Positions 17,914 through 33,448 of a DNA stretch of 64,000 bases are shown here, in pieces. The DNA comes from Myxococcota bacterium. Lineage in GTDB: Bacteria > Myxococcota_A > UBA9160 > SZUA-336. The stretch spans positions 576,001 through 640,000 of the forward strand of contig CBDFGR010000003.1 in NCBI GenBank assembly GCA_965247115.1. The letters run 5' to 3'. How positions within the stretch are numbered: the stretch's first letter is position 1; every line of letters starts with the position of its first letter. The notes below the pieces were generated by a model, which was not told the DNA's origin, did not search any database, and saw nothing but the letters and a program-made list of their open reading frames with translations. A program made the position numbers and the translations under genes.

Positions 17914-19086
17914 ATGATTGCTTTCGAGCAGGACAACAACTTGCAGGCGCGAATCAAGGTCGTGGGGGTCGGCGGTGCCGGCGGCAACGCGGTCAACACG
18001 ATGATCGGTGCCGGCCTGAACGGCGTCGACTTCGTGGCGACGAACACGGATGCGCAGGCACTGGGGGAGAACCTGGCAGGGACGAAGCTCCAGCTCGGCG
18101 AGCGGGGCCTCGGTGCTGGTGCCGATCCAGAGCTGGGGAGGAAGTGCGCCGAGGAGTCGCGCGAGCGCTTGCGAGAGCAGCTCGAGTCCGCCGACATGGT
18201 CTTCGTCACCGCGGGACTGGGCGGGGGCACAGGGACCGGCGGGGCGCCGGTAGTGGCGGACGTCGCCAAGGAGATCGGCGCTCTCACCGTCGCAGTGGTG
18301 ACCAAGCCCTTCCTCTTCGAGGGCTCGGTCCGCGCGCGTCAAGCAGAGAGCGGGATCGACGCGCTCCACGACGTGGTGGACACGCTCATCACCATTCCGA
18401 ACACCCGCCTGCTCGAGATGGCGGGTGCGGATACGGTGATCACGGACGCATTCCGGCTCGCAGACGAGGTGCTGCTGAACGCGGTTCAGGGGATCTCGGA
18501 CCTGATCACCGTGAACGGCATGATCAATCTCGACTTCGCCGACGTGCGGACCACCATGAACGAGATGGGCATGGCGCTCATGGGGACCGGCCGCGCCAAG
18601 GGCGACAACCGGGCGGTCACCGCCGCGCAGCAGGCGATCTCGAATCCGCTGCTTGAAGACCTCTCCATCAAGGGGGCGAAGGGCGTGCTGCTGAACGTGA
18701 CTGGCGGCCCGAACATGACACTCCACGAGGTCAACCAGGCTGCCATGCTCATCCAGGAGCAGGCGCACGACGAGGCGAACATCATCTTCGGCTCTGTCAT
18801 CAACGATGAGATGGACGAGGAGATCCGCGTCACCGTGATCGCCACGGGCCTCTCGGACCGGACACGGGTGCGCCGGCGCGAGCTGCACGAGGAGTCGCTG
18901 GACAACGTCACGCCCCTACACCCGCCGGCCCGCGAGGACGGAGACGCAGCAGCAGAGCTCGGCCCCGAAAGTCTTGCGGAGTCCACTCTGGAGACCGGTG
19001 AAGCCGCCGAGGCCGAGTTCATCTCGCCCTTCGACGAGGAGTTCGACGTTCCGGCCTTCATCCGCAAGACGCGTGATTCGGGGTAG
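17914..19086 (+). CDS. ftsZ: Cell division protein FtsZ
   Basis: [18 protein letters not shown] signature, NLDFADV, C-terminal DVPAFIRK. Confidence 0.99.
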
Positions 19087-19087
19087 A

Positions 19088-20152
19088 CGAAGCCAGCATG
19101 TAAGCACCATTCCGCGACCCCGGTCGCTAGCCGGCTGCCGGCAGGCGAGCAGAGGCGCGCGCGATCTCCTCGCCGCCCTGCTCGCCTGCCTGGCCTGCAC
19201 CGTGACCCCCCAGGCACCCGACACTGCAGAGCGCGGGTCGCAGGCCCTACCGACGGGTGCGCAGCTCCTTCGCCCGCACGAGCCCCTCGATCCCGCGAGC
19301 GTGAAGCTCGTGCCGGAGGAGCGCACTGTCGAGTCGAACCTGGTCCTCGACCTCTACACTTGGTTTCATTCCAAGAGCTACACCTCGTCGCGTATCGTCT
19401 TCCCGAGCACGGAGCGGAGCGAGGCGGTTGCGCACCTGCTGCTTCCCGACGGCCCGGGTCCCTACCCCGTCGTCATGGTGTTCCCCATCCTCGGCGGCTC
19501 GCACGTGACGAGCGAGGGCCTCGCGAAGGCCCTGATCTCTGGCGGCTACGCCGTCGCCCGCCTCGAGCGTCCGGAGATCGACCTGGCGGACCCCGCTGTG
19601 GGCCCGCACGAGTTCTCAAAAGCGATCAGCGGCGCCGTCATCGACGGCCGTCGCCTGATCGACTTCCTCGCCACCCATCCGCGTATCGACGCGCATCGCC
19701 TGGCCTCCGCGGGGGTGAGCCTCGGCGGCATCCAGGCGCTGCTCCTGGCACAGACCGACGCGCGCGTGCGAGGCGGCTTCTTCGTGATGGTGGGCGGAGG
19801 TCTCGCCGAGATCCTTTGGGACTCCGCTGAGAAGCCGATCCGAGCCTTTCGCGAGCGCATCCGGGCGGAGCGGGGCCTGGAGACACGCGAGGCGTTTGTC
19901 GAGAGTCTGCGCGACACAACCCGCGAGATAGATCCACTCACATACGCGCCACTGCTCGAGCCCGGTGTCGTACTACTCGCCTCGGGCCGCTTCGATCGCG
20001 TAATGCCGCCCGCACGAACCGAGGCGTTGTGGCAGGCGTTGGGCAGACCGCGCTGGATCCACCTGCCGGTAGGTCACTACCAGCTCGCACCGTTGTTCTG
20101 GTGGACCGCAGCGCGCGGAGCCGAACACCTGAACGTGCTGCTCGCTGATTGA
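19088..20152 (+). CDS. Putative lipoprotein, alpha/beta hydrolase (start unresolved)
   Basis: LLAALLACLAC lipobox-like segment; GVSLGG nucleophile elbow; RFDRVMP and PVGHY candidate Asp/His. Confidence 0.75.
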   Translation, partial: RSQHVSTIPRPRSLAGCRQASRGARDLLAALLACLACTVTPQAPDTAERGSQALPTGAQLLRPHEPLDPASVKLVPEERTVESNLVLDLYTWFHSKSYTSSRIVFPSTERSEAVAHLLLPDGPGPYPVVMVFPILGGSHVTSEGLAKALISGGYAVARLERPEIDLADPAVGPHEFSKAISGAVIDGRRLIDFLATHPRIDAHRLASAGVSLGGIQALLLAQTDARVRGGFFVMVGGGLAEILWDSAEKPIRAFRERIRAERGLETREAFVESLRDTTREIDPLTYAPLLEPGVVLLASGRFDRVMPPARTEALWQALGRPRWIHLPVGHYQLAPLFWWTAARGAEHLNVLLAD

Positions 20153-20320: not shown

Positions 20321-20587
20321 TTGCCTCTGTGGATCGCGTGGCCGCTGGTCGTCTCTCTTCAGGTCTATCTGGCCGTGGGACTGGTCGTGGCGGTCGCGCT
20401 CGAGCTCCGCGGTCTCGCGCGGCTCGATCCGGCTGTGACCGGGAGCTCATGGGGCTTCCGGTTCGTGATCTTCCCCGGACTTGTCGCGCTCTGGCCACTG
20501 TTTCTGCGACGCTGGGTTCTGGGCTCGAGCGAGCCCCCGGAAGAGCGAAACGCCCACCGCAACGCAACGCGCGGAGCGCGACCTTGA
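20321..20587 (+). CDS. Small membrane hypothetical protein
   Basis: TTG after GGAGG; two hydrophobic segments around RLDPAVTGSSWGFRFVIFPG; TTGA-coupled to the next gene. Confidence 0.75.
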   Translation: MPLWIAWPLVVSLQVYLAVGLVVAVALELRGLARLDPAVTGSSWGFRFVIFPGLVALWPLFLRRWVLGSSEPPEERNAHRNATRGARP

Positions 20588-21075
20588 TTGCCGGTCTTCG
20601 CCGCCGGCACCGCACTTGGATCGGCCTTCTCGCGCTCGTCGTGCCCGCGGGCTTCCTTCTCGGGGTGCTCGGTCGAGAGGAGCCACGAGTCCTAGACGCT
20701 CTGCCAGCGACCCTCCTGGGTCTCGACGGAGGCACTACGCGCACTGTCTGGGAACATGAGGATCTGTTCGGCACGGTGCCGGTCACCGTGCGCCTGCTCT
20801 CGACGCCCAGCACGACCGAACGCCTGCTGGAGCTCTCGCCGAGAAGCGACCCTCGTCGACCCGACGTATTGGTGTACTGGGCTCCGGCGTCGGCACCGGC
20901 AGATCAGCTGGCGGAAGGAGCCTACCTGCTGGGTCGACTTGCCGGGACTCGCGCGCAGCACTTCGCGCTCCCGCCAGAGGCCAGCGCGGAATCGGGACGT
21001 CTGTATCTCTACAGCCTGGGTCATCAAGAGTTACTCGACTCGGCGCTTCTCCAGGGTGGAGGCCCGGTGCGGTGA
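20584..21075 (+). CDS. Membrane-anchored hypothetical protein
   Basis: MIAGLRRRHRTW + TM, then PDVLVYW...AYLLG...LYLYSLGHQE; coupled on both sides. Confidence 0.75.
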   Translation: MIAGLRRRHRTWIGLLALVVPAGFLLGVLGREEPRVLDALPATLLGLDGGTTRTVWEHEDLFGTVPVTVRLLSTPSTTERLLELSPRSDPRRPDVLVYWAPASAPADQLAEGAYLLGRLAGTRAQHFALPPEASAESGRLYLYSLGHQELLDSALLQGGGPVR

Positions 21076-22124
21076 GTGTCCAGTACAAGGCCGTGCAGTG
21101 GAACCCGCAGAAGAAACGCTACGACCGGGTCCTGGCCGCCGGAGTCGCGCTGTACGTGGGAGCGTTTGTCGGAATGGGCGCGGTGCTACAGCCGAACGCA
21201 ACGGCAGAGACCCTGCTGATTCGCGCGTTCGGGACCGGCGCCCTCCTCCTGCTTCACATCACGCTCTGCATCGGGCCGCTGTGCCGGCTGGATCCACGCT
21301 TCCTGCCGCTGCTCTACAACCGGCGCCACCTGGGTGTGACGACCTTTCTGCTGGGACTCTCGCATGGCGGCTTCGCGATCGCCCAGTTTCACGCGCTTGG
21401 AGACCTGCATCCGCTAGTGAGTGTGCTCGCTAGCAATCCGAGATTCGACAGTGTGAGCCAGTTCCCGTTCCAGCCGTTCGGCCTGGCGGCCCTGACCTTC
21501 CTGTTCCTGATGGCTGCGACGAGCCACGACTTCTGGCTCGCAAATCTGACAGCTCCCGTCTGGAAGGCACTCCACATGGGCGTCTACCTGGCCTATGGAT
21601 CGCTCGTGATCCATGTGTCGTTCGGAGCCCTTCATTCCGAAACCCACCCTGCGCTGCCCGCAATCCTCGCTGTCGGTTTCATGAGTGTGCTCGGCCTGCA
21701 CCTCGCGGCTGGCTGGCGCGAGCGAGCGGGAGATGCCGAGCGGCTGCCACAGGGTGAGGACGGCTACGTCGACGTCTGCGCCGTCGATGCGATCCCCGAG
21801 GCGCGCGCGCACGTGGTCGCGCTTGCTGGCGAGCGCATCGCCGTCTTCCGCTACGACGGCTGCGTGTCGGCAATCTCGAATGTCTGCCAGCACCAGAACG
21901 GACCGCTCGGCGAGGGGAAGGTGGTCGACGGTTGCGTCGTGTGTCCCTGGCACGGCTACCAGTATCTGCCCGACAGCGGGCGCTCTCCCGAGCCTTTCAC
22001 GGAGAAGATCCCGACCTTCCACGTCCGCGTCCGCGACGGTCGCGTGTGGGTCGACCCGAACCCCAACCCCCCCGGCACGCGGGTCGAGCCCGCGCGGGTC
22101 GAGGCGGAGTCCCATGGCAGCTGA
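21072..22124 (+). CDS. Ferric-reductase-like (MsrQ-type) transmembrane domain fused to a C-terminal Rieske [2Fe-2S] domain
   Basis: LLYNRRHLG, SHG, AATSHD, WKALHMGVYLAY..VIH (candidate heme His); Rieske CQHQNGPLGEG...CPWHG. Confidence 0.9.
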   Translation: MSVQYKAVQWNPQKKRYDRVLAAGVALYVGAFVGMGAVLQPNATAETLLIRAFGTGALLLLHITLCIGPLCRLDPRFLPLLYNRRHLGVTTFLLGLSHGGFAIAQFHALGDLHPLVSVLASNPRFDSVSQFPFQPFGLAALTFLFLMAATSHDFWLANLTAPVWKALHMGVYLAYGSLVIHVSFGALHSETHPALPAILAVGFMSVLGLHLAAGWRERAGDAERLPQGEDGYVDVCAVDAIPEARAHVVALAGERIAVFRYDGCVSAISNVCQHQNGPLGEGKVVDGCVVCPWHGYQYLPDSGRSPEPFTEKIPTFHVRVRDGRVWVDPNPNPPGTRVEPARVEAESHGS

Positions 22125-22890
22125 GCCGCGCGACGAGTTCTACATAGGCTGGGAGCCGCACGCTCCGGCCGGCATCCGCTCGCGGTTGCGGCTGGCGGTC
22201 GCCGCCCTCGCCGCCTTTGCGCTACTGCTCGCGGTGGCACTGAGCTCGCTGCAGAATCCGCTTCCGGTGAGCTCGTTCGAGTTCGGCACGACCCGTGAGT
22301 TCGTCGGCTGGGTTGCCGAGACCCCCTACCCGGCCCTGCTCGTTGCGGCGCAGGGCCCAGCAACGCATCCCGTCCGCTTCTCGCGCTACACGCTCGCCGA
22401 GTCCGGGACCAAGTTTGGAGCACAGCAGCTCGCGTCGGGCTTCGACGGACAGCTCGTTCGCCTACAAGGCACATTGATCTACCGCGACGACCAGACGATG
22501 ATCGACGTAGTTCCGGGCTCGCTCACGCCCGTGAGCGAGCCGGCAGAGACCCAGTCGGACGGACGCGGCGAGGAGCTTGGCAGATTCACGCTGCGAGGCG
22601 AGATTGTCGACACGAAGTGCTACTTCGGCGTCATGAACCCGGCGACCGGAAAGGTCCATCGCGCTTGCGCGGCTCGCTGCATCAGTAGCGGCATTCCTCC
22701 GGCCCTGCTGTTGCGCGACCGAGGAGCGGGGTCCGCCACGCTGCTCCTGGTCGATTCCGGAGGAGCGAACGTGAATGAGCGCGTTCTCCACATGGTCGCG
22801 GAGTCGGTGGAGATCACGGGCCGAGTCAAGCGCCTCGAGAACATTCTGGTCCTGTACGCAGATCCGGAACACTACCGGCGCCTGAACTGA
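22114..22890 (+). CDS. Membrane-anchored exported protein with a Cys/His motif
   Basis: DEFYIGW, one TM, GEIVDTKCYFGVMNPATGKVHRACAARCISSGIPP. Confidence 0.8.
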   Translation: MAAEPRDEFYIGWEPHAPAGIRSRLRLAVAALAAFALLLAVALSSLQNPLPVSSFEFGTTREFVGWVAETPYPALLVAAQGPATHPVRFSRYTLAESGTKFGAQQLASGFDGQLVRLQGTLIYRDDQTMIDVVPGSLTPVSEPAETQSDGRGEELGRFTLRGEIVDTKCYFGVMNPATGKVHRACAARCISSGIPPALLLRDRGAGSATLLLVDSGGANVNERVLHMVAESVEITGRVKRLENILVLYADPEHYRRLN

Positions 22891-25395
22891 CGGGCTCGCT
22901 TCTCTGGCGCCAGCGGTGAGGATTGCACGGCTGCGCACGCTCGCCTTCCTGGCGAGCGGCGTGTCCGGCTGCCCGCCCTCGACGGTGCAGAGCTGACCGG
23001 GGACGCGATTGGGCTCGCCTTTCGCGAGCTCGGCCGGGCAGGCGCCCCCGCGCTCGTTCTCCTTCACGGAAGTCCTGGCAGCGTGCAGGACTTCGACTCC
23101 CTGGCCGCGAAGCTGGCGGGGGACCGGCACGTGCTGGTGCCAGACTTACCGGGCTTCGGCCACTCGACGCGGGAGCTTCCCGACTACTCCTCGCGGACGC
23201 ACGCGCGCTACCTCCTGGCCCTACTCGACCAGCTCGGCGTCGCGCGCGCCCATCTGGTCGGCTTCAGCATGGGCGGAGCCGTGGCTCTGAGCGCAGCCGA
23301 CCTCGCACCCGCGCGCGTGGCCTCGATCACGTTGGTCGCCTCGATCGGCGTCCAGGAGTTCGAGCTCTTGGGTAGCTATCATTTGAACCGTCTGGTTCAC
23401 GCGCTCCAGCTCGGTGCCGTCTGGACACTCGAGAAGGCGGTGCCGCACATGGGTCTGCTCGAGCACAGCCCGCTCGGCATCCCGTACGCTCGGAACTTCT
23501 TCGATTCGGACCAGCGCCCGTTGCGCGCCATATTGGAGCGCTACCGGGCTCCCATGCTGATCATCCACGGCCGCAGCGACCTGCTCGTTCCCGTGGCGGC
23601 GGCGCTGGAACACCAACGACTGGTCCCGCAGAGCGAGCTCGAGCTGTTGCAAGGCGGTCACCTGCTCCTGTTTCGGGACTCCGACCGGGTCAAGGAGCGC
23701 CTACTCCGATTCGTGCGGGACGTCGAGAGCGGCCGAGCGCGCACGCGCGCTCGCGCCGCTCCGGAGCGCGTGGCGCGGGCCCAGCTCCCCTTCGACCGCT
23801 CTCAGGCCGGACCGCAGGGACTGCTCGGCTTCCTTGCATTCTTCCTGCTGGTCTTTGCAGCCTCGATGATCAGCGAGGACCTGACGTGCATTGGTGCGGG
23901 GATGCTGGTCGGCGCCGGACAGATCGGCTTCCCGACAGCGACGCTCGCATGTGTGGTCGCGCTCTTTGCAGGGGACCTTCTGCTCTACGTTGTCGGACGC
24001 GTGTTCGGTCGGGCGGCGCTCTCCGTTCCGGGTCTCTCCCGAGTCGCTGCATCGGGCCTGGACCGAACCGCGGCGCGCCTGCGCACGTCCGGTGCGGCCG
24101 TGATCCTGGCCAGCCGCTTCTTGCCCGGCACCCGCCTCGTGACCTATCTCGCCGCAGGTGTGACGCGCTACCCCGTGACTACCTTCGCCTGCTATCTCCT
24201 GATCGCGGCCCTGCTCTGGACGCCGGTCCTGGTCGGATTCAGCGCGCTCGTGGGCACACTCGCCTTTGAATATTTTGCCGTCTTCGAGCGCTACGCCCTA
24301 CCGGCCGTGCTCGGCCTCGCGATCGCGGTCCTGCTGACGGCTCGTTGCCTCGTACCGCTCTGGAGCTTCCGTGGCCGCCGGCTGCTGCTCGGAAGCTGGC
24401 GTCGGCTCACGCGCTTCGAATTCTGGCCGATGTGGGTGTTCTACCCGCCAGTCGCGCTGTGGATCGCAGCGCTCGCACTACGGCATCGCAGCCTGCGCGT
24501 AGTCACCTCGGTCAATCCGGCGATCGAGGGCGGCGGCCTTGTCGGAGAGTCGAAGTGGCGCATCCTCCAGGGGTTGTCCGAGTCGGCGGAATTCGTGGCG
24601 CGCGGCGCACTCCTTGCGCGGGGGAGCGATCGACTGGCCCAGGTGTTCGAGTTTCTCGCCGAGAACGGCGCCCGCTTCCCGGTCGTACTCAAGCCCGACG
24701 TCGGCGAGCGCGGGAAGGACGTCGAGATCGTACGCAACCGCGCCCAGCTCGAGGCCTACCTCGGCGCGCACCCGCCGGACTCGATCGTTCAGGAGTACGT
24801 ACCCGGCGCCGAGTTCGGGATCTTCTACTACCGCCACCCCGACTCCGAACGCGGCGAGATCCTGTCGATCACGGAGAAGCGCATGCTCGAGGTCGTAGGG
24901 GACGGCCGGCGCACGCTCGAGGAGCTCATCCTGCTGGATCCGCGAGCGGTCTGCATGGCGCCGCGCCATCTGACCGTTCATCAGAGTCGTCTCGACTGCG
25001 TGCTCCCTCCGGGCGAAGTCCGGCGCCTGACGGAGGTCGGGACCCATTCCCTGGGAGCGCTGTTCCTGGACGGCGGGTGGGCGTGGAGTACGGAGCTCGC
25101 GGATCGCTTTGATCGCATAAGCCGCGCGTACACCGGCTTCTTCTTCGGACGCTACGACGTGCGCGCCCCCGACCTGGCTGCTTTTCGGCTGGGCCACGCT
25201 TTCCGGATCGTCGAGCTCAATGGCCTCACCTCGGAGGCTACGCACATCTATGATCCGAAGAACAGCCTCTTCGAGGCTTATCGCGTGTTGTTCCACCAGT
25301 GGCAAATCGCCTTCGAGATCGGCGCGGCAAATCGCGCTCGCGGTCACGAGCCGCTAGGTTTCCGTGAGGGCCTCCGACTCGTGCTCCGTCGGTAA
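22891..25395 (+). CDS. alpha/beta hydrolase - DedA/VTT - ATP-grasp-like triple fusion (start unresolved)
   Basis: LVLLHGSPG (upstream of GTG 23083), GFSMGG, HGRSD, GGH; DedA SEDLTCI...GDLLLY..GR, SRFLPGTR; ATP-grasp FPVVLKPDVGERG, QEYVPG, GRYDVR, IVELNG. Confidence 0.85.
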   Translation, partial: RARFSGASGEDCTAAHARLPGERRVRLPALDGAELTGDAIGLAFRELGRAGAPALVLLHGSPGSVQDFDSLAAKLAGDRHVLVPDLPGFGHSTRELPDYSSRTHARYLLALLDQLGVARAHLVGFSMGGAVALSAADLAPARVASITLVASIGVQEFELLGSYHLNRLVHALQLGAVWTLEKAVPHMGLLEHSPLGIPYARNFFDSDQRPLRAILERYRAPMLIIHGRSDLLVPVAAALEHQRLVPQSELELLQGGHLLLFRDSDRVKERLLRFVRDVESGRARTRARAAPERVARAQLPFDRSQAGPQGLLGFLAFFLLVFAASMISEDLTCIGAGMLVGAGQIGFPTATLACVVALFAGDLLLYVVGRVFGRAALSVPGLSRVAASGLDRTAARLRTSGAAVILASRFLPGTRLVTYLAAGVTRYPVTTFACYLLIAALLWTPVLVGFSALVGTLAFEYFAVFERYALPAVLGLAIAVLLTARCLVPLWSFRGRRLLLGSWRRLTRFEFWPMWVFYPPVALWIAALALRHRSLRVVTSVNPAIEGGGLVGESKWRILQGLSESAEFVARGALLARGSDRLAQVFEFLAENGARFPVVLKPDVGERGKDVEIVRNRAQLEAYLGAHPPDSIVQEYVPGAEFGIFYYRHPDSERGEILSITEKRMLEVVGDGRRTLEELILLDPRAVCMAPRHLTVHQSRLDCVLPPGEVRRLTEVGTHSLGALFLDGGWAWSTELADRFDRISRAYTGFFFGRYDVRAPDLAAFRLGHAFRIVELNGLTSEATHIYDPKNSLFEAYRVLFHQWQIAFEIGAANRARGHEPLGFREGLRLVLRR

Positions 25396-25450
25396 CTCCG
25401 CGCCCCGCCGCAACGTAGTGGGAACGGACGAACCGCTAGGAGGAAGATTC

Positions 25451-25915
25451 ATGACAAGCAAGCTCATCTATCGAATCACCGCAGGAACCGCGTTCGCACT
25501 ATTGCTCTGCTACGCACCGCAGGCAGCGGCGGTAGATCCGATCTACACCGGGCTCTTCAGCTCGAAGGCCGTGAGTGGCTACGACGCGGTCGCTTACTTC
25601 GAGGTTGGTCAGCCCGTCAAGGGCTCCGACGAGCACGCCTACGAATGGATGAGCGCGACTTGGCGGTTTTCGAACGCCGAGAATCTGGCGCTCTTCAAGG
25701 GCGATCCCGAACGCTACGCTCCGAGGTACGGCGGCTACTGCGCCTATGCGGTCAGTCGGGGCAGCACGGCCTCGGCCGATCCGGCAGCCTGGTCGATTGT
25801 CGACGGAAGGCTCTACCTCAACTACTCGCTCGACATCCGGGAGCAGTGGCAGGAGGACACCGCGGAGAACATACGCAAGGCCGACGAGCAGTGGCCTGCC
25901 CTCCTGGCCGACTGA
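25451..25915 (+). CDS. Exported YHS-domain protein (Cys form of the YHS (seleno)protein family)
   Basis: Signal peptide; AVSGYDAVAYF, WRFSNAENLALF..DPERYAPRYGGYCAYA, IVDGRLYLNY. Confidence 0.9.
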   Translation: MTSKLIYRITAGTAFALLLCYAPQAAAVDPIYTGLFSSKAVSGYDAVAYFEVGQPVKGSDEHAYEWMSATWRFSNAENLALFKGDPERYAPRYGGYCAYAVSRGSTASADPAAWSIVDGRLYLNYSLDIREQWQEDTAENIRKADEQWPALLAD

Positions 25916-25955
25916 ACGAGTCAGAGATCCGGATCACTCCGGCGGCCGTCCGCTT

Positions 25956-27293
25956 TCAGCTGCTTGCCCAGAGGGAGCTCGTGGATGGGCTCGTCAGCGC
26001 ACTGCGTTGCCATGTGGCCTGCGTCGAGAGAGACACACCAAAGTATCTGGGGACCTCGACTCCCTGCAAGCGCAGGATGAGAGCCACGATGGCAAAGTGG
26101 TGGACCGCGTGACTGCCAAGAAAGGCCAGCTCGCGGGACAAGTTGGAGGCAAGCCAGGCTTCGTCTCGTCCCGCTGCCGGGGCCTCCAGTCGGACCTGGA
26201 GCTCGAGGCTCGGCAGAAACACGAGCTCGCTCCGCACGCTCTCGAGGATGCGCGAGAGACGAACGCGTGCCTCTGCGGAGTGGCGGGCGAGCTGCTGCGC
26301 ACGCGGGCGGCGATCATAGTCAATGCGTCGGGCGCGCACACCTCGGATCAGGCAGTCGAAGGTTTCCAGCACGTGACGCACCTGGTCGCCTACGGTCCCG
26401 TGCTCGAAACCCGGCACTCCACAGCGGAAGCGCTCAGGCTCGAGCTCAGAGAGGAGCCCGTCCAGCTGCTCGAGCAGCTCGACACACTGCGCCGTCTCGC
26501 GCTGAACCTCGCTGATCATCGGCGTGGGCATGCGCGGGTGCCGCGCGACGTGGGTGGCAATCGTTCGCTGGGCGTCTCGCGCGAGGACCTTGCGATCGAA
26601 TCCCGAGAGGAGCTTTGAAGAGAAGGAGATGCGCGCGTCGAAGCCCGGCAGGCGCAGGAGCTGCCACGCGTGAGTGCCGAAGGTCATGTCGGCCCACCAA
26701 CACACCGCGAGTGCGGCCGGATTCTCGCCCCCTTCCGTTGCGTAGGCGAGACTCGCGCAGGCGACCGGAGCCTCGGCGCGCAGCGCCGCCTCGAACAGCG
26801 CGGAGCGAAACCGAAGCACACTCTCGCCCGGAGTGCTGGTTCCTTCCGGGAACAGGATCACGCGCTCCCCAGCGCGGAGCGTTCGCACCATGTCGTCGAT
26901 CGCCGGCAGGACGCCGCGGAGCCGCCTCCGGTCCACGAAGACCGTACCCACGAAGTGGCACAGCGCCCCGATGCCCGGCCAGCTTGCGATCTCGGTCTTC
27001 GCCACGAAGGTCCCGGGGGCGCTTGCAAGCAGCGCCACGACGTCGACGTAGCTCAGGTGATTTGCGACCAGCAGCGAGGCGCGCGGGGGAGGTTCGCCCT
27101 CGACGCGGATCTGCATGCCGATCAGGCGCACACTCACGCGGGCCCAGACCCTCATGAGGTGACACCGAGCGCGGGCACATGGCGCGGAGCGACCGACCAG
27201 CGCTATCGAGACCGCGAGCTGACAGCAGACTAGCGCGAGCGTCCACAGTACGAGTCCGGTTGCTCGCGCGAGCGCGCGAGCGTCAGCCGGCAT
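25956..27293 (-). CDS. PlsC/OlsA-like acyltransferase fused in frame to a DinB-like domain
   Basis: ANHLSYVD, FVAKTEI, LFPEGTST; then TVGDQVRHVLE..IDYDRRPR..RELAFLGSHAVHH..FGVSLST with no intervening stop. Confidence 0.85.
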   Translation of the reverse strand: MPADARALARATGLVLWTLALVCCQLAVSIALVGRSAPCARARCHLMRVWARVSVRLIGMQIRVEGEPPPRASLLVANHLSYVDVVALLASAPGTFVAKTEIASWPGIGALCHFVGTVFVDRRRLRGVLPAIDDMVRTLRAGERVILFPEGTSTPGESVLRFRSALFEAALRAEAPVACASLAYATEGGENPAALAVCWWADMTFGTHAWQLLRLPGFDARISFSSKLLSGFDRKVLARDAQRTIATHVARHPRMPTPMISEVQRETAQCVELLEQLDGLLSELEPERFRCGVPGFEHGTVGDQVRHVLETFDCLIRGVRARRIDYDRRPRAQQLARHSAEARVRLSRILESVRSELVFLPSLELQVRLEAPAAGRDEAWLASNLSRELAFLGSHAVHHFAIVALILRLQGVEVPRYFGVSLSTQATWQRSALTSPSTSSLWASS

Positions 27294-28134
27294 AGTGGTT
27301 GCGCTTCGCGACATCCATCCGCTCGAGGTCGAAGAGGAGGAAGAAGTCGGCGGTTCCGAACTCGCTGTCGAGCGCTGGTTCGCTGCAGACCCGGGCGCCC
27401 ATCGCGAAGTACGCGCGAAACAGCGCGGGGATTGGGGCGGAGGTCGCAGGGCTCGAGGGAGCCCCTGGCACTGCGAATCGCGGCATCGGGCGTAGGCAAA
27501 GCGTGGGGTGCCCGCGACCCTGCGCGGCCAGCTCCGCGGCAGTGGCCCACGCGCAGGCGGGATCCCTTGTCGCGATCGAGCTGCAGCCAAACAGGTAGCG
27601 CTTGCGGTTGTGGAGCATATAGGCACCGATCCCGCGCCAGAGCAGCTCGAGCAGGCGCCGTCTGCGATGGGACTTCTCGATGCAGACGCGGCCCAGCTCC
27701 ACTCCTCTGCCCTCGATCTCAGCGGGCAACGGGCGCAGGTCGAACTCGCGAGCGGAGTAGAAGCCGCCACCCAGCCTGGCGAGCTCGGCAGTCTGGAGCC
27801 GACAGGTGGCAACCGGGTCACCGGTCGCGCGCTCGAGCGCTACCAGATGGTGGCAGGTCGCATCGAACTCGTCGGAGTCGAGCTCGAGCTCGAAGGAGCG
27901 CGAAGAGATGGCGCCGAGCTCTAGATTGAATACGCGGAAGCGCAGTCGCTGGATCGACAGAAGCTCCGCCTGGTCTCGGGCGAAGCGAACGACGTACCGA
28001 CCGGTCTGTACCTCCCAGTCCGGAATCGCCATGTCCAGAGGCGGATGCCCGATCTGTCCGTCCCCGACGGGGTCAAGCAAGGCCACCGGCTCCAGCTCCG
28101 GTTTAGGATTCTCCGCTTCTAGACACGGCTTCAA
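27283..28134 (-). CDS. GNAT N-acyltransferase, OlsB (ornithine/aminolipid N-acyltransferase)-like
   Basis: QRLRFRVFNLELG, DSDEFDATCHHL, GFYSAREFDL, ELGRVCI, YLFGCSS, PALFRAY..GARVC.EPALDSEFGTADF. Confidence 0.88.
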   Translation of the reverse strand: MKPCLEAENPKPELEPVALLDPVGDGQIGHPPLDMAIPDWEVQTGRYVVRFARDQAELLSIQRLRFRVFNLELGAISSRSFELELDSDEFDATCHHLVALERATGDPVATCRLQTAELARLGGGFYSAREFDLRPLPAEIEGRGVELGRVCIEKSHRRRRLLELLWRGIGAYMLHNRKRYLFGCSSIATRDPACAWATAAELAAQGRGHPTLCLRPMPRFAVPGAPSSPATSAPIPALFRAYFAMGARVCSEPALDSEFGTADFFLLFDLERMDVAKRNHYAG

Positions 28135-28380
28135 TACTCCGGCTCCTCTGAAGGCTGTTCTATCGTGATGATGGAGGCACGCCGCCGGTTACTGTAATTG
28201 ATGTGACCACACGCGCGAGCCCGGAGCGCATGCTCGCGGTGTACGTGGAGCCCCGGCTCCCGGAGGGGCTGCGAACCTGATCTCCTGGCCTGGCAGGACG
28301 AGATCTGGCGCAACTTTGAAACTCCCGCGGGCCCCGTGCATCGAGCAAACGAAGAAGGCGCTGTCGCGCGGAGGGATCGA

Positions 28381-30000
28381 ATGACAGCAATCAAGGTCGC
28401 GACCTGGAGCGAGCTCAAGCCATCCAGTCCGACGTACGCTCTGGTCGCGAACGTCGATCTGGTGGTGATCCGCTGGCCCGACCAGGATGAGGTCTCGGTG
28501 CTCTACGGGCGCTGTCTGCACCGTGGCGCCCTGCTCTCCGACGGGGAGGTGCGCGGCAAGGATCTGATCTGCGGCGTGCACCAGTGGGACTATCGCTACG
28601 AGACCGGGGTCAGCGCCTACAACCCAGCCGAGAAGCTCAAGCGCTTCCGCGGCTGGATCGACGACGATGGGGTCTGGGTGGACGAGGACGAGGTCGTGGC
28701 CTGGGAGCGGGAGCATCCGCAGGCCTACGACCGCGACGCTTACCAGGGACTCTACGCCGACCCGCATGGAACACCCGACGAGCCCTTCAACTTCTGGGTC
28801 CAGGAGCTCGCCGAGGTCGGTCTGCAGCGTCGAGGACACCACGGCCGCGTCGATGCGATGGGAGTGCCGCGCCATCTGCTCCCGGAGTGGGACGAGCTCC
28901 AGCTCCTTACCGCCCAGCTGCACCGAGTGCCGCTGCTCGACGCTGAGCCCGTCGCCACGGAGCTGGTGATCGGGCCCGAAGCGCGAAAGCCCCTGCGGCT
29001 CGACATCCCGCTGTTCGTGTCCGACATGAGCTTCGGCGCGCTCTCGGAAGAGGCAAAGATCTCCCTGGCCCGGGGTGCGGAGCTGGCTGGAACGGGGATC
29101 TGCTCGGGCGAGGGCGGCATGCTCCCCGAGGAGCAGAAGAGCAACAGCCGATACTTCTATGAGCTCGCCTCCGCACGCTTTGGCTTCAACATGGAGAAGC
29201 TCCGCGACGTACAGGCCTTCCACTTCAAAGGGGGCCAGGGCGCCAAGACCGGGACCGGTGGTCACCTGCCGGGGTCGAAGGTGGTCGGAAAGATCGCGGA
29301 AGTCCGTGGCCTCGAGCCCGGTCAGGACGCCATCTCTCCCTCTCGCTTCCCGGACTGGGACACGGTCGAGCACTTTCGCCGCTTCGCGGCCGAGGTCCGG
29401 GAGTGCACGGGAGGCATCCCCGTCGGTTTCAAGCTCTCGGCCCAGCACATCGAGCGCGACATCGAGGCCGCCCTGGAAGTCGGCGTGGACTACATCATCC
29501 TGGACGGCCGTGGCGGGGGCACAGGCGCCGCGCCCTTGATCTTCCGAAACAACATCTCGGTTCCCACCATTCCCGCGCTTGCTCGGGCGCGCCGTTGCCT
29601 AGACCGAGCAAAGCACCCCAACGTGACGTTGATCATCACAGGTGGCCTTCGCGTTCCCTCCGAGTTTGCCAAGGCCATGGCCCTTGGCGCAGACGGGGTG
29701 GCGCTCGCGAACTCGGCCATCCAGGCGATCGGCTGCCTGGGCATGCGCGCCTGCAACACGAACAACTGCCCGGTCGGCATCGCGACCCAGAAGCCGGAGC
29801 TGCGCGCGCGCATCGACATCCAGATCGCCGCGAAGCGACTCGAACGCTTCTTCCGGTCCTCGGTCGAGCTCATGCAGGTATTGGCCCGGGCCTGCGGGCG
29901 CCGTCACCTCAACGAGTTCGAGCTTGCGGACCTGACGACCTGGAATCGCGACATGGCGGCTCTCTCCGGGGTCTCCTACGCCGGGGTCACCCAGCCGTGA
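28381..30000 (+). CDS. Rieske-fused FMN-binding glutamate synthase-like protein
   Basis: Rieske CLHRG...CGVH; SDMSFGALS, SGEGG, GQGAKTGTGGHLPGSKV, DGRGGGTGAAP, CLGMRACNTNNCPVG (3Fe-4S); no amidotransferase domain. Confidence 0.92.
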   Translation: MTAIKVATWSELKPSSPTYALVANVDLVVIRWPDQDEVSVLYGRCLHRGALLSDGEVRGKDLICGVHQWDYRYETGVSAYNPAEKLKRFRGWIDDDGVWVDEDEVVAWEREHPQAYDRDAYQGLYADPHGTPDEPFNFWVQELAEVGLQRRGHHGRVDAMGVPRHLLPEWDELQLLTAQLHRVPLLDAEPVATELVIGPEARKPLRLDIPLFVSDMSFGALSEEAKISLARGAELAGTGICSGEGGMLPEEQKSNSRYFYELASARFGFNMEKLRDVQAFHFKGGQGAKTGTGGHLPGSKVVGKIAEVRGLEPGQDAISPSRFPDWDTVEHFRRFAAEVRECTGGIPVGFKLSAQHIERDIEAALEVGVDYIILDGRGGGTGAAPLIFRNNISVPTIPALARARRCLDRAKHPNVTLIITGGLRVPSEFAKAMALGADGVALANSAIQAIGCLGMRACNTNNCPVGIATQKPELRARIDIQIAAKRLERFFRSSVELMQVLARACGRRHLNEFELADLTTWNRDMAALSGVSYAGVTQP

Positions 30001-30028
30001 AGACGCCGACTTGCGGAGGAGCTGCGCG

Positions 30029-31990
30029 ATGACGAGGCAGGTCTGGTACAAAGCGCTCGAGCCCGACGAGCTCAAAGAAGGCCGCGTCAAGCCGATCACA
30101 TGCGGGCTCCGGACGCTGTGCCTCGCCCACTACCAGGGACAGTACTCCGCACTCGACAACAAGTGTCCGCACCAGGGCGGACCGCTCGGTGAGGGGTCGA
30201 TCGAGAAGGGTCTGCTGCGCTGTCCCTGGCACGGCTGGGACTTCGATCCCCTGAGCGGCGCGCCTCCCGGTGGCTACGATGACGGCGTCCCCACGTTCCC
30301 CGTCGACGTGCGAGCGGACGGCATCTACGTCCAGTTGGAGGAGGATCAGCCGAAGGTCGAGACGGTCAGCGACGTGATGGCCCAGACCATGACCAACTGG
30401 GGAGTGCGCTGGGTCTTCGGGATGGTGGGCCACTCGAACCTGGGCCTGGCCGACGCGCTGCGCGTTCAGGAGGAGCGGGGCGCCCTGGGCTACATCGGGA
30501 TTCGCCACGAAGGGGCCGCGTCCTTCGCCGCGTCGGCCTACGGCAAGCTCACCGGCCGCCCCGCGGCCTGCCTGGGCATCGCAGGCCCCGGCTCGACAAA
30601 TCTGTTGACCGGGCTCTGGGATGCGAACGTGGACCGTTCGCCGGTGCTGGCGCTCTCGGGGCAGGTCGACACGCAGGTGCTGGGGCCGGGCGCTTTCCAG
30701 GAAGTCGACCTTCAGGCCGTCTTCGGCAAGGTCGCGCAGTGGAGTCAGCCGGTCCTGCACACGAGTCGCTTCGCCGAGCTGATGAACCTGGCATGCAAGA
30801 GCGCCATCTTGCATCGCGGCGTCTCGCACCTGGTGTTCCCGGACGAGGTTCAGACGCTCCCGGCACCGGCCGGTAGCGAGCCGGGCAGTCCCGAGGGGCG
30901 GCTCACCTCGCGCGCGATCACGCCGCCAGAGGAGTCCGTAGAGGCCGCCCTCGCGCTGCTCGGGCGCTCGACCAGACCACTGATCATCGTGGGCCACGGC
31001 GCGCGCTTCCACATGCCAGAGATCACCGAGCTCGCCGAGGCGCTGCCGGCCCCGGTCATCACTACGTTCAAGGGCAAGGGGTTGATCTCCGACCGCCATC
31101 CCCTCGCGGGGGGTGTGCTGGGTCGCAGCGGCACTCCGATCGCCAGCTGGCTGATGAACGAGGCCGACGCGCTGCTCGTGCTCGGCGCGAGCTTCAGCAA
31201 TCACACGGGCATCACCGACAAGAAGCCGACCATCCAGGTCGACTTCGAGGCGCCTGCGCTCGGCAAGTTCCACGCTGTCGACGTTCCCGTCTGGGGGGAG
31301 ATCGGCGCCACCGTGAAGATTCTGCGCGACCGGCTCGTGCCTGCCGCGGGGGTCAACGATGCACCCGCAGAGGTCGCCGAGCGCTGGGCGATCTGGCGGG
31401 CAGAGAAGGAGCGGCGCCTGGCCGACCAGCGCGGCAAGGGCGTCAACTCGGCCTCGGTCTTCGCGGCCCTCACGCGCCAGGTCGCAGAGGACGCCATCAT
31501 CGCGGTCGACGTCGGCAACAACACCTACTCGTTCGGCCGCTACTTCGAGTGCGCCCGGCAGTCAGTCCTGATGAGCGGCTATTTGGGCTCGATTGGCTTT
31601 GGCCTGCCGGCGGCCATGGGCGCATGGGCCGCCACCCAGGAGGACGATCCGCGCTTCCGCGGCCGCCAGGTCGTGTCGATTTCAGGGGATGGTGGCTTCG
31701 GCCAGTACATGGCCGAGCTGCTCACCGCCGTGAAGTACGGCATGAACATCACGCACGTCCTGCTCAACAACGACCAGCTCGGCAAGATCTCGAAAGAACA
31801 GAAGGCAGGCAACTGGAACGTCTGGCAGACGTCGCTGCACAACCCAAACTTCGCGGAGTACGCAGAACTCTGCGGGGCTCGCGGCGTGCGGGTCACCGAA
31901 GCCGCGGAGCTCGACGATGCGCTCGCGGGGGCGCTCGCCCACGACGGGCCGAGCCTGGTCGAGGTCGTTGCAGACCCCGACCTGATCTGA
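30029..31990 (+). CDS. Rieske-fused ThDP-dependent pyruvate oxidase/acetolactate synthase-like enzyme
   Basis: Rieske CPHQGGPLGEG...CPWHG; IRHEGAASFAA, GPGSTN, GDGG...NN ThDP motif. Confidence 0.92.
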   Translation: MTRQVWYKALEPDELKEGRVKPITCGLRTLCLAHYQGQYSALDNKCPHQGGPLGEGSIEKGLLRCPWHGWDFDPLSGAPPGGYDDGVPTFPVDVRADGIYVQLEEDQPKVETVSDVMAQTMTNWGVRWVFGMVGHSNLGLADALRVQEERGALGYIGIRHEGAASFAASAYGKLTGRPAACLGIAGPGSTNLLTGLWDANVDRSPVLALSGQVDTQVLGPGAFQEVDLQAVFGKVAQWSQPVLHTSRFAELMNLACKSAILHRGVSHLVFPDEVQTLPAPAGSEPGSPEGRLTSRAITPPEESVEAALALLGRSTRPLIIVGHGARFHMPEITELAEALPAPVITTFKGKGLISDRHPLAGGVLGRSGTPIASWLMNEADALLVLGASFSNHTGITDKKPTIQVDFEAPALGKFHAVDVPVWGEIGATVKILRDRLVPAAGVNDAPAEVAERWAIWRAEKERRLADQRGKGVNSASVFAALTRQVAEDAIIAVDVGNNTYSFGRYFECARQSVLMSGYLGSIGFGLPAAMGAWAATQEDDPRFRGRQVVSISGDGGFGQYMAELLTAVKYGMNITHVLLNNDQLGKISKEQKAGNWNVWQTSLHNPNFAEYAELCGARGVRVTEAAELDDALAGALAHDGPSLVEVVADPDLI

Positions 31991-32114
31991 GGCCGCAATG
32001 GACGCTGGAACCCGCTTTGCGTCGCCGAGCGTATGATGCTGGAGTTCGGCTCGGACCCTGCCCGCTGGCTTCTCTGCGGCAATTCTGCAGAGGTCCCTCT
32101 GGTACAGTTCTGCC

Positions 32115-32738
32115 GTGGTCGAGAGCTCGGACTCGGGGGACGACGAAGAGGTCGAGGCTGCGCTCGCCCACCGCCTGCGCTCCGGAGAGGTGGACGCCTT
32201 CGAGGAGATGGCGCACCGCTACGGTGGTGTGATGCTCGCGGTCGCTCGCCGAATCCTACGGGACGAGAACGACGCCCGCGACGCTCTTCAGGACGGGTAT
32301 CTCTCGGCGATTCGCGGCATCGATCGCTTCCGCGGCGACGGGAGCTTGCGGGGCTGGCTCCACAGGATCGTCGCGAACGCCGCACTGATGAAGCTGCGCA
32401 AGCGTCGCCGGCATCCGGAGGAGTCCATCGACGAGCTGCTTCCGAGCTTCTCCCCGGACGGGCACCGGATCGACCCCGGACCGCCGTGGCGCCCCGACGA
32501 GGAGCTAGAGGGCGAGGAGTTGCGCCGAAGCGTGCGAGATTGCATGAAGCGGCTGCCCGCCGGATATCGCGAGGTTCTGGTGTTGCGCGATGTCGAGGAG
32601 TTCGACACGGCCGAGACCGCAGCGCTGCTCGAGGTCACCCATGCCGCAGTCAAGGTGCGCCTCCACCGCGCGCGCCAGGCGCTTCGAACACTGCTCGACG
32701 CGCCCGGTTCCCCGGTCCGAGCGCGTCGTAGACCGTAA
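32115..32738 (+). CDS. ECF RNA polymerase sigma factor
   Basis: DARDALQD, FRGDGSLRGWLHRIVANAALMKLR, LPAGYREVLVLRD, AVKVRLHRAR. Confidence 0.93.
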   Translation: MVESSDSGDDEEVEAALAHRLRSGEVDAFEEMAHRYGGVMLAVARRILRDENDARDALQDGYLSAIRGIDRFRGDGSLRGWLHRIVANAALMKLRKRRRHPEESIDELLPSFSPDGHRIDPGPPWRPDEELEGEELRRSVRDCMKRLPAGYREVLVLRDVEEFDTAETAALLEVTHAAVKVRLHRARQALRTLLDAPGSPVRARRRP

Positions 32739-32749
32739 CAGGTGGCAAT

Positions 32750-33001
32750 GTGACCTGCCGGGAGCTCATCGACTTTCTCGACCGCTACCTAGACGGCGAG
32801 CTGACCAGCGCGGAGGGCGCCGAGTTCGCCGCGCATCTGGAGTGCTGCCCCGATTGTGTGAACTACCTGGAGAGCTATACGCGCACGATCCAGCTCAGCA
32901 AGACCTGGTTCCGGGACCCGGATGAGCCCCTTCCCGAAGGGGTCCCCGAGGAGCTGATCGACGCCATCCGCGCGGCTCGCAGCCAGGACTCCACGGACTG
33001 A
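32750..33001 (+). CDS. Soluble zinc-binding anti-sigma factor (zf-HC2/ZAS)
   Basis: MTCRE..YLDGEL...HLECCPDC (HxxxCxxC); no TM; directly after the ECF gene. Confidence 0.9.
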   Translation: MTCRELIDFLDRYLDGELTSAEGAEFAAHLECCPDCVNYLESYTRTIQLSKTWFRDPDEPLPEGVPEELIDAIRAARSQDSTD

Positions 33002-33029: not shown

Positions 33030-33234
33030 ATGTTCGGCCTCTCCACGGTTCTCGAAGAGGTCGCGCACGTCGCCGCGGCGATCATCGGGCTGCTCGGCTG
33101 CGCTGTGATCGCATACGGAGTGGCGCGCGGCGCCGTGACTCTGACTCGATTGGAGCTGGCCGCCTGGCGGTCATGCGACTCGGCCCCACGAGCGGAGCTG
33201 CGGCGCGATCTTGGCTGCGACTCGGCCCCACGAG
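33030..33234 (+). pseudogene. Truncated DUF1622-like membrane protein
   Basis: N-terminal half (AIIGLLGCAVIAYG...RLE...LRRDLG) breaks at a 19-bp duplication where YLLLGLEF-like sequence is expected. Confidence 0.6.
33174..33234. repeat. 19-bp direct repeat TGCGACTCGGCCCCACGAG x2
   Basis: Identical copies at 33174-33192 and 33216-33234. Confidence 0.95.
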
Positions 33235-33334
33235 GTACTAGCGAGGTACCGGGGGAGCTCGACGGAGAGCTTGATTGCTCAGCACTCAAACTCCCACGCT
33301 CATGTTCCGAAGACAGGAGAGGGAGGCGATCGCG

Positions 33335-33448
33335 ATGAGTGACTCGGCGCATGAAACGACGGGCGGGACGGGGTCGCTGCGCAGGAACCTGCTGCTGCTC
33401 GCTTCCTATCTGGCACTGATGACGCTGATCGCCGTCGCGTACGTCTAG
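33335..33448 (+). CDS. 37-aa single-TM small protein
   Basis: [45 protein letters not shown]; stop overlaps the convergent ndk stop. Confidence 0.65.

Follow-up and report, generated by a model that had tools for sequence, protein, structure and literature searches.

A widespread modular gene system around a Rieske-fused, MsrQ- and STEAP-like haem protein, seen from a Myxococcota genome

The closest described systems are MsrPQ (YedYZ), including SigF/NrsF-MsrPQ-MrpX of Azospira suillum, in which a six-helix YedZ/STEAP haem protein with an Arg signature and three canonical His residues is paired with a periplasmic partner, and STEAP2-4, NOX and FRE, which have the same transmembrane (TM) fold. 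A bacterial ferric-reductase-domain (FRD) model with Rieske and flavin mononucleotide (FMN) domains, M4, is given in a legend of Zhang et al. 2013 (PMC3591440), a paper that also sets out the Arg signature of the YedZ/STEAP group and, in the parts consulted, gives no function, partners or operon for M4. The present study analyzes a window, the whole stretch of 64,000 nucleotides at positions 576001-640000 of contig C3 in a Myxococcota genome of 5.17 Mb (98% complete), where twelve open reading frames (ORFs), g1 to g12, lie at 20321-33001, downstream of ftsZ and a hydrolase gene and upstream of ndk. The cluster consists of three modules, a redox core (g1-g4), a lipid module and a pair of Rieske oxidases, and is not one fixed pathway. 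It represents a real, widespread and undescribed modular system, MsrPQ- and STEAP-like in its working yet a member of neither; neither the core nor the ligase module was found described in the open-access literature, subscription journals being outside the coverage. Four overlapping genes (4 nt shared at g1-g2 and at g2-g3, 11 nt at g3-g4) form the core:

20321-20587, plus strand: g1, core subunit, an 88-residue two-helix membrane protein of no known family (no Pfam or NCBIfam match)
20584-21075, plus strand: g2, a 163-residue single-anchor protein with a TTG start
21072-22124, plus strand: g3, a six-helix ferric-reductase-domain (YedZ/STEAP-type) haem protein with a C-terminal Rieske [2Fe-2S] domain
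22114-22890, plus strand: g4, a membrane-anchored, predicted periplasmic tandem OB-fold protein and predicted partner of g3

The membrane domain of g3 scored above the cut-off for PF01794, and an AlphaFold2 (AF2) model gave six helices and the Rieske domain (pLDDT 88.8), with a fold search returning STEAP4 (Z 17.0, root-mean-square deviation 3.8, 202 residues aligned), the TM domain of NOX5 (Z 16.1) and STEAP1. Arg replaces the first canonical His (R84/R85) and His is kept elsewhere (H98, H168, H181), which is the signature of the YedZ/STEAP group, the positions having been equated by eye from the RRxLG...H spacing using the MsrQ motif. Invariant in all 94 aligned sequences are R84, R85, H86, H98, H152, D153, H168, H181 and the four Rieske ligands, and the extra His, H86, could on this conservation leave room for a second haem. 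Because six helices are combined with a basic N-terminus and a basic loop at 70-86, the C-terminus and with it the Rieske domain are predicted to be cytoplasmic. Tat export of this domain was considered and rejected, since the paired Arg residues in TM3 constitute the FRD signature and not a signal ahead of the last helix. The domain resembles dioxygenase ferredoxins, and the fused FAD/NADPH dehydrogenase domain found in the long form of NOX and FRE is not present, which separates g3 from STEAP2-4, NOX and FRE in spite of the shared membrane fold. Compared with MsrPQ, the core adds a cytoplasmic Rieske fusion as well as two small membrane subunits, g1, with G20, W58 and H79 invariant in 61 rows, and g2, with R6 and H9 invariant in 47. 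The latter is often reduced to its N-terminal helix of about 50 residues, the short form being found in Rhizobium and a g1-g3 gap of about 150 nt at several loci.

The partner differs as well, being a Tat molybdoenzyme in MsrPQ and here an anchored tandem-OB protein with a Cys/His/Met site. This site, D166-K168-C169...M174...H182-x2-C185-x3-C189, is invariant in 101 of 101 rows, although K168, C169 and M174 were contained in the pattern used to scan GTDB and are invariant in those loci by selection; D166, H182, C185 and C189 lay outside the pattern. The AF2 model of g4 shows one anchor and two OB folds (pLDDT 88.7). Fold searches returned only generic OB-fold matches (best Z 7.5), which does not establish a new fold, an ESM Atlas search returned no named family, and the 290 homologues among 7997 candidates scored came with no family name. 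When the membrane domain of g3 was predicted together with one haem and g4, the complex scored 0.75, the best control 0.00; the mark applied is reached by 116 of 157 solved pairs and 2 of 215 mismatched pairs, a calibration that is only rough here because our own alignments and a haem ligand were used. The runs shared at least 65% of contacts with a partner pLDDT of at least 78, and in the model g4 residues 173-176 and 179-189, among them M174, H182, C185 and C189, contact the stretch 105-112 of g3, where TM3 ends on the periplasmic side, with the Cys motif predicted to be docked on the periplasmic face of g3. Model and ligands support a path from Rieske centre to haem to g4, and we consider it likely that g3 and g4 form a membrane electron conduit. 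An intersubunit His2-Cys-Met copper site using H107 of g3 was also tried and dropped as a general feature, this residue occurring in only 4 of 14 divergent rows. Two further observations concern g4. Its TGA stop (22888-22890) runs in frame straight into the hydrolase coding sequence of g5, and readthrough would join both; and 11 of 150 sampled Acidobacteriota genomes have a stand-alone homologue, of about 130 residues, of its C-terminal Cys-bearing OB domain (e.g. G129:C13:8738-9031).

The GTDB pattern scan recovered 589 stretches in 29 of 64 parts, from which about 1400 are estimated overall, and the best 80 were used as loci, 34 of them fully flanked, with 9.5 kb on each side. All 34 contain g4 and, by tblastn, g3; g1 was found beside g3 in 33 of them, and g2 at full length in 22. 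A quick tree of 94 g3 sequences (SH-aLRT support; loci lacking a near-full-length g3 were left out) carries 13 phylum labels and sets an 80-row lipid-linked group that includes this window (SH-aLRT 97) apart from 14 divergent rows; the g3 of the window groups loosely with Myxococcota records. Families recurring beside the core in the 80 loci were short-chain dehydrogenases/reductases (SDR, 26 loci), TANGO2 (25), extracytoplasmic-function (ECF) sigma factors (23, with a TIGR02943-type representative), DoxX (20), MsrAB (8), VOC (8) and TlpA (4). MsrP was not among the families present in at least 4 of the 80, and the PF00174 genes of this genome sit elsewhere, an MsrP-like one on contig C1. The stress context that had been proposed for the cluster in an earlier note on this DNA agrees with the recurrence of redox-stress neighbours (MsrAB, DoxX, TlpA, YHS, NrsF, chlorite-dismutase family), and its expectation that the sub-modules co-occur was confirmed, as comparison of gene neighbourhoods and genomes showed co-occurrence and physical linkage across many phyla.

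These neighbours bear on a STEAP-like alternative in which g4 would bind Cu or Fe and the electrons would reduce metal for uptake, export or cofactor loading. The best fold matches of g3 are after all STEAP metalloreductases, Rhizobium binae has a CopD gene after the core, and Cys, His and Met are a typical Cu ligand set. Heavy metals, too, elicit a response from ECF16 sigmas according to the supplement of PMC7826278. Nevertheless the families in at least 4 of the 80 loci include no metal importers, TonB receptors or multicopper oxidases, the recurring neighbours being thiol, Met and lipid enzymes, and we regard metal reduction or delivery as quite improbable.

Electrons could enter the core from the second module, which comprises two further Rieske fusions:

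28381-30000, plus strand: g9, a Rieske domain fused to a GltB-type FMN/[3Fe-4S] enzyme, 539 residues, no amidotransferase domain
30029-31990, plus strand: g10, a Rieske domain fused to a thiamine diphosphate (ThDP, also TPP) enzyme of the pyruvate oxidase (PoxB) family, with TPP N, M and C domains

That the cluster holds three intact Rieske domains on unrelated scaffolds, as stated earlier, was borne out: g3, g9 and g10 all scored above the Pfam cut-off with every ligand present (C272-x-H...C291-x2-H in g3, C45...C64 in g9, C46...C65 in g10), pairwise identity between the domains is only 27-36%, and they are attached to a ferric-reductase TM domain, a GltB FMN domain and a three-domain TPP enzyme, respectively. 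Likeness to GltB and PoxB extends to the FMN barrel (PF01645, 293.9 bits) and [3Fe-4S] motif (C452-x5-C-x4-C) of g9, which matches PDB glutamate synthase at E 1e-34 over residues 214-477 only, and to the GDG...NN ThDP motif and three PoxB-like domains of g10 (3eya, E 2e-75; best equivalog 386 bits, cut-off 742). Both differ from these enzymes in the N-terminal Rieske domain and in falling under all equivalog cut-offs; g9 moreover has no glutaminase, being a Rieske and FMN domain alone with no amidotransferase gene within the cluster. Elsewhere in this genome (G000:C2:699000-719000) there are two GltB-FMN paralogues without Rieske domains near amidotransferase, glutamine-synthetase-like and sarcosine-oxidase-like genes, clusters that resemble N-methylglutamate pathways.

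The pair occurs without the core and repeatedly beside it, and is thus, judged from gene neighbourhoods, a separable module that has joined the core repeatedly. Of 11 proteobacterial loci, 8 have g9 directly adjoining g1, both on one strand, and g10 next to them; g9 was not found in the genomes of the other three. Similar linkage exists at L099, L100, L109, L112, L048 and L028. Among 60 relatives Rieske-TPP is present in 4 of the 8 that have g3 and in 1 of the 52 others. It is also carried by haloarchaeal plasmids, where its neighbours are GltB-like, DUF3179, peroxiredoxin and TauE genes and the stretches read contain no core gene. Whole genomes were searched for 50 core-bearing loci (the 34 fully flanked and 16 of the 80 chosen for longer loci), of which 12 have Rieske-TPP; a role for the Rieske oxidases as obligate donors was rejected on this count. 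Two other donors are candidates. A fourth type of Rieske fusion, a Rieske::FMN reductase family seen in 4 of the 80 loci and at L050:6976-8172 directly upstream of g1, is a candidate alternative electron donor, and an SDR gene that often stands just ahead of g1 (L113:7477-8223; L138/L139, about 4600-5340; L127, 7538-8284; Rhizobium) and in Salinivibrio also precedes a VTT-ligase operon is a candidate NAD(P)H-linked partner.

The third module lies between the core and the oxidases:

22916-25395, plus strand: g5, a fusion of alpha/beta hydrolase, DedA/VTT and ATP-grasp ligase
22951-22960, no strand: strain-specific deletion junction, about 79 nt lost at the 5' end of g5 (10-nt overlap)
25451-25915, plus strand: g6, an exported member of the YHS-domain (seleno)protein family, Cys form (NF041384, 161.6 bits, cut-off 70)
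25956-27293, minus strand: g7, an OlsA-like O-acyltransferase (27293-26541) fused in frame to a DinB-like domain (26540-25956)
27283-28032, minus strand: g8, an OlsB-like N-acyl amino acid synthase (GNAT), above the cut-off for PF13444, OlsB models at 117-123 bits under theirs

Most of these assignments (DedA/VTT fusion, two acyltransferases, now read as OlsA-like and OlsB-like, YHS), and those of the ECF sigma and the HxxxCxxC anti-sigma, had been made from the letters alone and hold by Pfam and NCBIfam; the DedA fusion is present as described, its C-terminal ATP-grasp ligase domain having been overlooked. ATP-grasp enzymes activate carboxylates as acyl phosphates, and the closest solved relatives of the g5 ligase are the ATP-grasps of glutathione synthetase (GshAB) and cyanophycin synthetase (E 4e-11), with ATP-binding K101 and metal-binding E275 and N277 invariant in 45 rows. 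In g7, whose gene overlaps that of g8 by 11 nt, the acyltransferase (PF01553) has NHLSYVD (HX4D) and FPEG motifs and reaches 128-134 bits with OlsA models, under cut-off, while the DinB-like domain keeps H56, H144, H147 and H148 in 38 of 38 rows and matches MDMPI_N weakly (E 0.011, sub-threshold). The two are separate genes in 18 of 18 homologous loci holding both; an assembly error behind the fusion here was rejected, as four other near-identical strains keep it with only a synonymous change by the junction. In g6 C97 is kept in 28 of 28 rows and no PDB relative was found by sequence; YHS selenoproteins are among those listed in PMC1976440. The module is similar to OlsB/OlsA, OlsF, GlsB/GlsA and serine-glycine lipid pathways in its GNAT and PlsC-type (HX4D) enzymes. 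It differs in that g7 and g8 score well under the OlsA and OlsB cut-offs, which bears on ornithine as head group, and in its ligase, DedA, DinB, TANGO2 and YHS components, which are outside the described pathways. In Vibrio cholerae vca0646-0649 an ornithine-lipid synthase (VCA0646, a second OlsF) ends a four-gene operon of unknown function (PMC12186959, PMC11573629); the likeness is by description only, and the descriptions seen mention no redox core.

Linkage of these genes to the core is uneven. In the 34 fully flanked loci there were ATP-grasp genes in 18, DinB-like in 18, OlsB-like in 17, DedA in 16, YHS in 13, hydrolase in 9 and OlsA-like in 6, a few of these matches being low-identity paralogues. 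At the level of whole genomes, however, the ligase was found in 50 of the 50 core-bearing genomes and OlsB in 45, only about half of the ligases lying within 10 kb of the core. Similarly, the ligase was found in 6 of the 8 relatives with g3 and 0 of the 52 without it, and in 10 of 10 Acidobacteriota with full-length g4 compared with 6 of the other 140 sampled. In the 113-genome phylum of G098 there were 11 genomes with g4, 11 with the ligase and 10 with both, three of these genomes having been seeds and the set probably representing one clade. The exception is Pseudomonadota, where among 400 sampled genomes a divergent g4 was found in 11 and the ligase in 13 with an overlap of one, and the notion that the core always needs the lipid module was rejected on this sample. 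The link between ligase and core, as traced by these searches, belongs to one clade. Ligase modules also exist free of the core, as SDR-VTT-ligase-DinB-NRDE in Salinivibrio and ligase-hydrolase-VTT in Paracoccus. The ATP-grasp family was seen, too, on plasmids of Komagataeibacter, acetic acid bacteria related to the producer of cerilipin.

The reading that we prefer, and to which we would give an even chance, is that the core moves electrons outward for defence of the envelope against oxidants with g9 and g10 as optional donors. Electrons would pass from the cytoplasmic Rieske centre to the STEAP/MsrQ-type haem of g3 and on to the Cys/His/Met site of g4, and the conduit would re-reduce envelope components oxidised by, for example, reactive chlorine. 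Oxidative chemistry of the pair would feed the Rieske centre, g9 by FMN-dependent oxidation of amino acids and g10 by ThDP-dependent oxidation of 2-oxoacids, both donating Rieske-to-Rieske to g3 and bypassing NAD(P)H. The OlsB- and OlsA-like enzymes would form an acyloxyacyl amino lipid to whose carboxyl the membrane-anchored ATP-grasp would add a second amine, with DedA flipping the aminolipid and DinB, hydrolase and TANGO2 turning it over. DinB proteins are often thiol transferases, and TANGO2, the gene for which sits away from the cluster in this genome, is an Ntn hydrolase and homologous to a protein implicated in human disease. The conduit may in this clade serve the lipid system or, at the least, form part of the same response to stress. 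Control would be exerted by a redox-sensing ECF sigma, more likely a distal SigF/NrsF than the adjacent g11/g12.

Several findings weigh against this reading. Rieske-TPP was not found in 38 of the 50 core genomes, and another donor must usually serve. With a 45-row profile, run with a positive control, no ligase was found in 10 of 11 divergent-core genomes, nor was it found in G023, G049 and G364, whereas it occurs without the core in 6 Acidobacteriota, 12 Pseudomonadota and the Salinivibrio, Paracoccus and Azospirillum loci. The lipid-linked 80-row group is one clade in the quick tree, so that counts of co-occurrence are not independent. In this strain g5 is frameshifted at its 5' end, and in the divergent group H107 of g3 is not conserved. 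The SigF-type promoter motif described below shows no enrichment upstream of g1 over the phyla (5 of 76, 2.8 expected), did not turn up in the 3 kb ahead of g3 at 11 proteobacterial loci, and in the window is not present before g1, g8 or g9. The earlier note had proposed a stress-induced regulon with the Rieske-fused oxidases as suppliers of electrons to a membrane module, and as an obligate pathway this does not survive the patchiness of both Rieske-TPP and ligase.

Such patchiness could instead reflect an island of co-regulated envelope-stress genes, three independent modules gathered by a common stress signal and not directly coupled in their chemistry. Every module does occur without the others, with gene order and orientation shuffled among loci, and the Rieske pair is present on haloarchaeal plasmids where the stretches read hold no core gene. 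Shared regulation alone sits less easily with the nesting of the core in ligase genomes (50 of 50) even where the two are far apart, or with the single gene run in which g9 abuts g1 in most proteobacterial loci, and we find this explanation rather unlikely. That core and lipid ligase are so tightly nested in this clade could also mean that the core acts on lipid, either by inward flow, with g4 oxidising a periplasmic substrate such as a lipid head group, or through an oxygenase site on the cytoplasmic side built of His residues from g1, g2 and g3 and acting on the aminolipid. Invariant H79 (g1), H9 (g2) and H86, H152 and H168 (g3) are all on the predicted cytoplasmic side, and the Rieske domain of g3 is of dioxygenase-ferredoxin type. 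The same residues are invariant, though, in the 14 divergent rows, from genomes mostly without the ligase, and FRD proteins normally send electrons outward, as stated in the parts of PMC3591440 consulted; lipid tailoring or inward flow appears highly improbable.

A variant that keeps the outward conduit and gives it a lipid target is a lipid-anchored periplasmic redox buffer re-reduced by g1-g4. Here the OlsB- and OlsA-like enzymes and the glutathione-synthetase-like, membrane-bound ATP-grasp would build a sulfur-bearing acyl-dipeptide lipid, DedA would flip it outward to scavenge HOCl or electrophiles, DinB, TANGO2 and hydrolase would process the conjugates, and the electrons would be drawn Rieske-to-Rieske from the amino-acid and 2-oxoacid oxidases. 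We think such a buffer clearly unlikely. If it existed, the ligase family would be the long-missing extender of aminolipid head groups, for example the taurine transferase of cerilipin. Cerilipin is made by an orphan ATP-dependent taurine transferase the gene for which is stated to be unknown (PMC12971839), and the step, formation of an ATP-dependent amide on a lipid carboxyl, is what the ATP-grasp would catalyse.

If outward flow to g4 is correct, it would provide a further route for reducing power over the inner membrane besides DsbD and MsrPQ, one fed through a Rieske centre and leading to a periplasmic acceptor of a new type, in at least 13 phyla and in the roughly 1400 stretches estimated for GTDB. 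Three unannotated families (g1, g2 and g4) would gain a concrete role, and the g5 ligase would become a named candidate for the gene behind ATP-dependent amide extension of ornithine lipids, a question that a 2026 review leaves open. Cultured hosts with the system include Rhizobium leguminosarum WSM1689 and Saltatorellus ferox. This analysis contributes the nesting at whole-genome level and the exception to it in proteobacteria, a model of the g3-g4 complex, the SigF-type motif together with the locus in Rhizobium, and the deletion in g5.

That deletion is a feature of the strain. The likely true start of g5, GTG 22916, is out of frame in the window; the first in-frame start, GTG 23083, is within the hydrolase domain, homologues begin with a signal anchor, and the DedA and ligase domains are intact from 23083. 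Sequencing runs X5, X6 and X9, from three studies, yield contigs with 69 extra letters and a 10-nt overlap at 22951-22960, and by coordinate arithmetic an insertion of about 79 nt restores the frame, which brings GTG 22916 into frame. Run X1, probably from the source sample, matches the window exactly and in one piece across the junction, and an assembly error was rejected on that match. The hydrolase domain has probably been lost in this strain, as read from the contigs, with DedA and ligase still makeable from 23083.

Regulation remains to be considered, for which the features are:

25392-25417, plus strand: SigF (ECF16)-type promoter motif GTAAC-N17-CGTA upstream of g6 (YHS)
32115-32738, plus strand: g11, ECF sigma factor, best model PRK11922, under cut-off
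32750-33001, plus strand: g12, soluble zinc-finger anti-sigma (ZAS), PF13490 (zf-HC2) above cut-off, H29-x3-C-x2-C, no TM segment

The adjacent g11 and g12 were earlier taken to be the switch of the cluster, and they do resemble RsrA-type systems in having a soluble HxxxCxxC anti-sigma beside an ECF sigma (TIGR03988 was under cut-off for g12). This proved the weakest part of the proposal, as sigmas at least 40% identical to g11 were near the core in only 4 of about 107 loci compared, with a ZAS match in one (L161). A paralogue of g11 (54% identical) with its own ZAS is on contig C1, and no common motif was seen upstream of g1, g8, g9 and g11 in the window. A possible autoregulated promoter, GGAAC-N17-CGTAT, lies upstream of g11 (32007-32033, plus strand) and was not seen before the C1 paralogue.

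The motif upstream of g6 is similar to the Caulobacter SigF promoter, GTAACC-CGTA (PMC7826278 supplement). The pattern was picked after seeing the g6 site; its 17 sites in this genome compare with 2-9 for each of 15 other spacers, and include sites upstream of sigF-nrsF (C3:2204279), dsbD, with an MsrP-like gene two genes downstream on contig C1, a DUF3179 gene and a multihaem cytochrome. It occurs upstream of g1 in L023 and L028. In Rhizobium, GTAAC-N17-CG(T/A)A lies upstream of the SDR-g1-g4 operon on each of two plasmids, and next to one of these operons are genes for a sigma factor, NrsF and a member of the chlorite dismutase family. According to the parts of PMC4436054 consulted, SigF of Azospira responds specifically to reactive chlorine. 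A SigF-type motif in some lineages is a further likeness to MsrPQ, and control of SigF/NrsF type fits better, and is more likely here, than control by the adjacent g11/g12. A universal promoter motif before g1 was also sought and dropped, neither a fixed pattern nor a de novo dyad search having found one. Among the other sites in this genome, G000:C3:504400-509200 holds two converging units, each behind a SigF-type motif, with genes for DUF3179, a SoxA/TsdA-like cytochrome c (repeated NPCAAK-type motif), an MFS transporter and a multihaem cytochrome c; and a duplicated segment at C3:685204 and C3:2399466 carries in each copy GTAAC-N17-CGTA and a 316-residue ORF of low GC3 with no Pfam match.

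The ORF calls agree with the count of twelve genes in 20321-33001. As a description of the whole interval from the dcw end to ndk the count is incomplete, however, since two more genes lie there. GC in the cluster is 64-69%, the same as in the remainder of the window, and a horizontal island was rejected on this flat composition. Scans of the window for sigma-70 promoters (0, 1.0 expected) and terminators (6, 6.1 expected) gave nothing beyond chance. One of the two additional genes, between ftsZ and g1 (18974-20152, plus strand), encodes an exported-looking alpha/beta hydrolase that is near the core in 0 of 80 loci. The other is a DUF1622-like ORF (33030-33338, plus strand; likeness by eye, no Pfam match), in which 18 nt are duplicated in direct orientation (33175 and 33217) and which is apparently degenerate; intact DUF1622 genes are near the core in 5 of the 80 loci.

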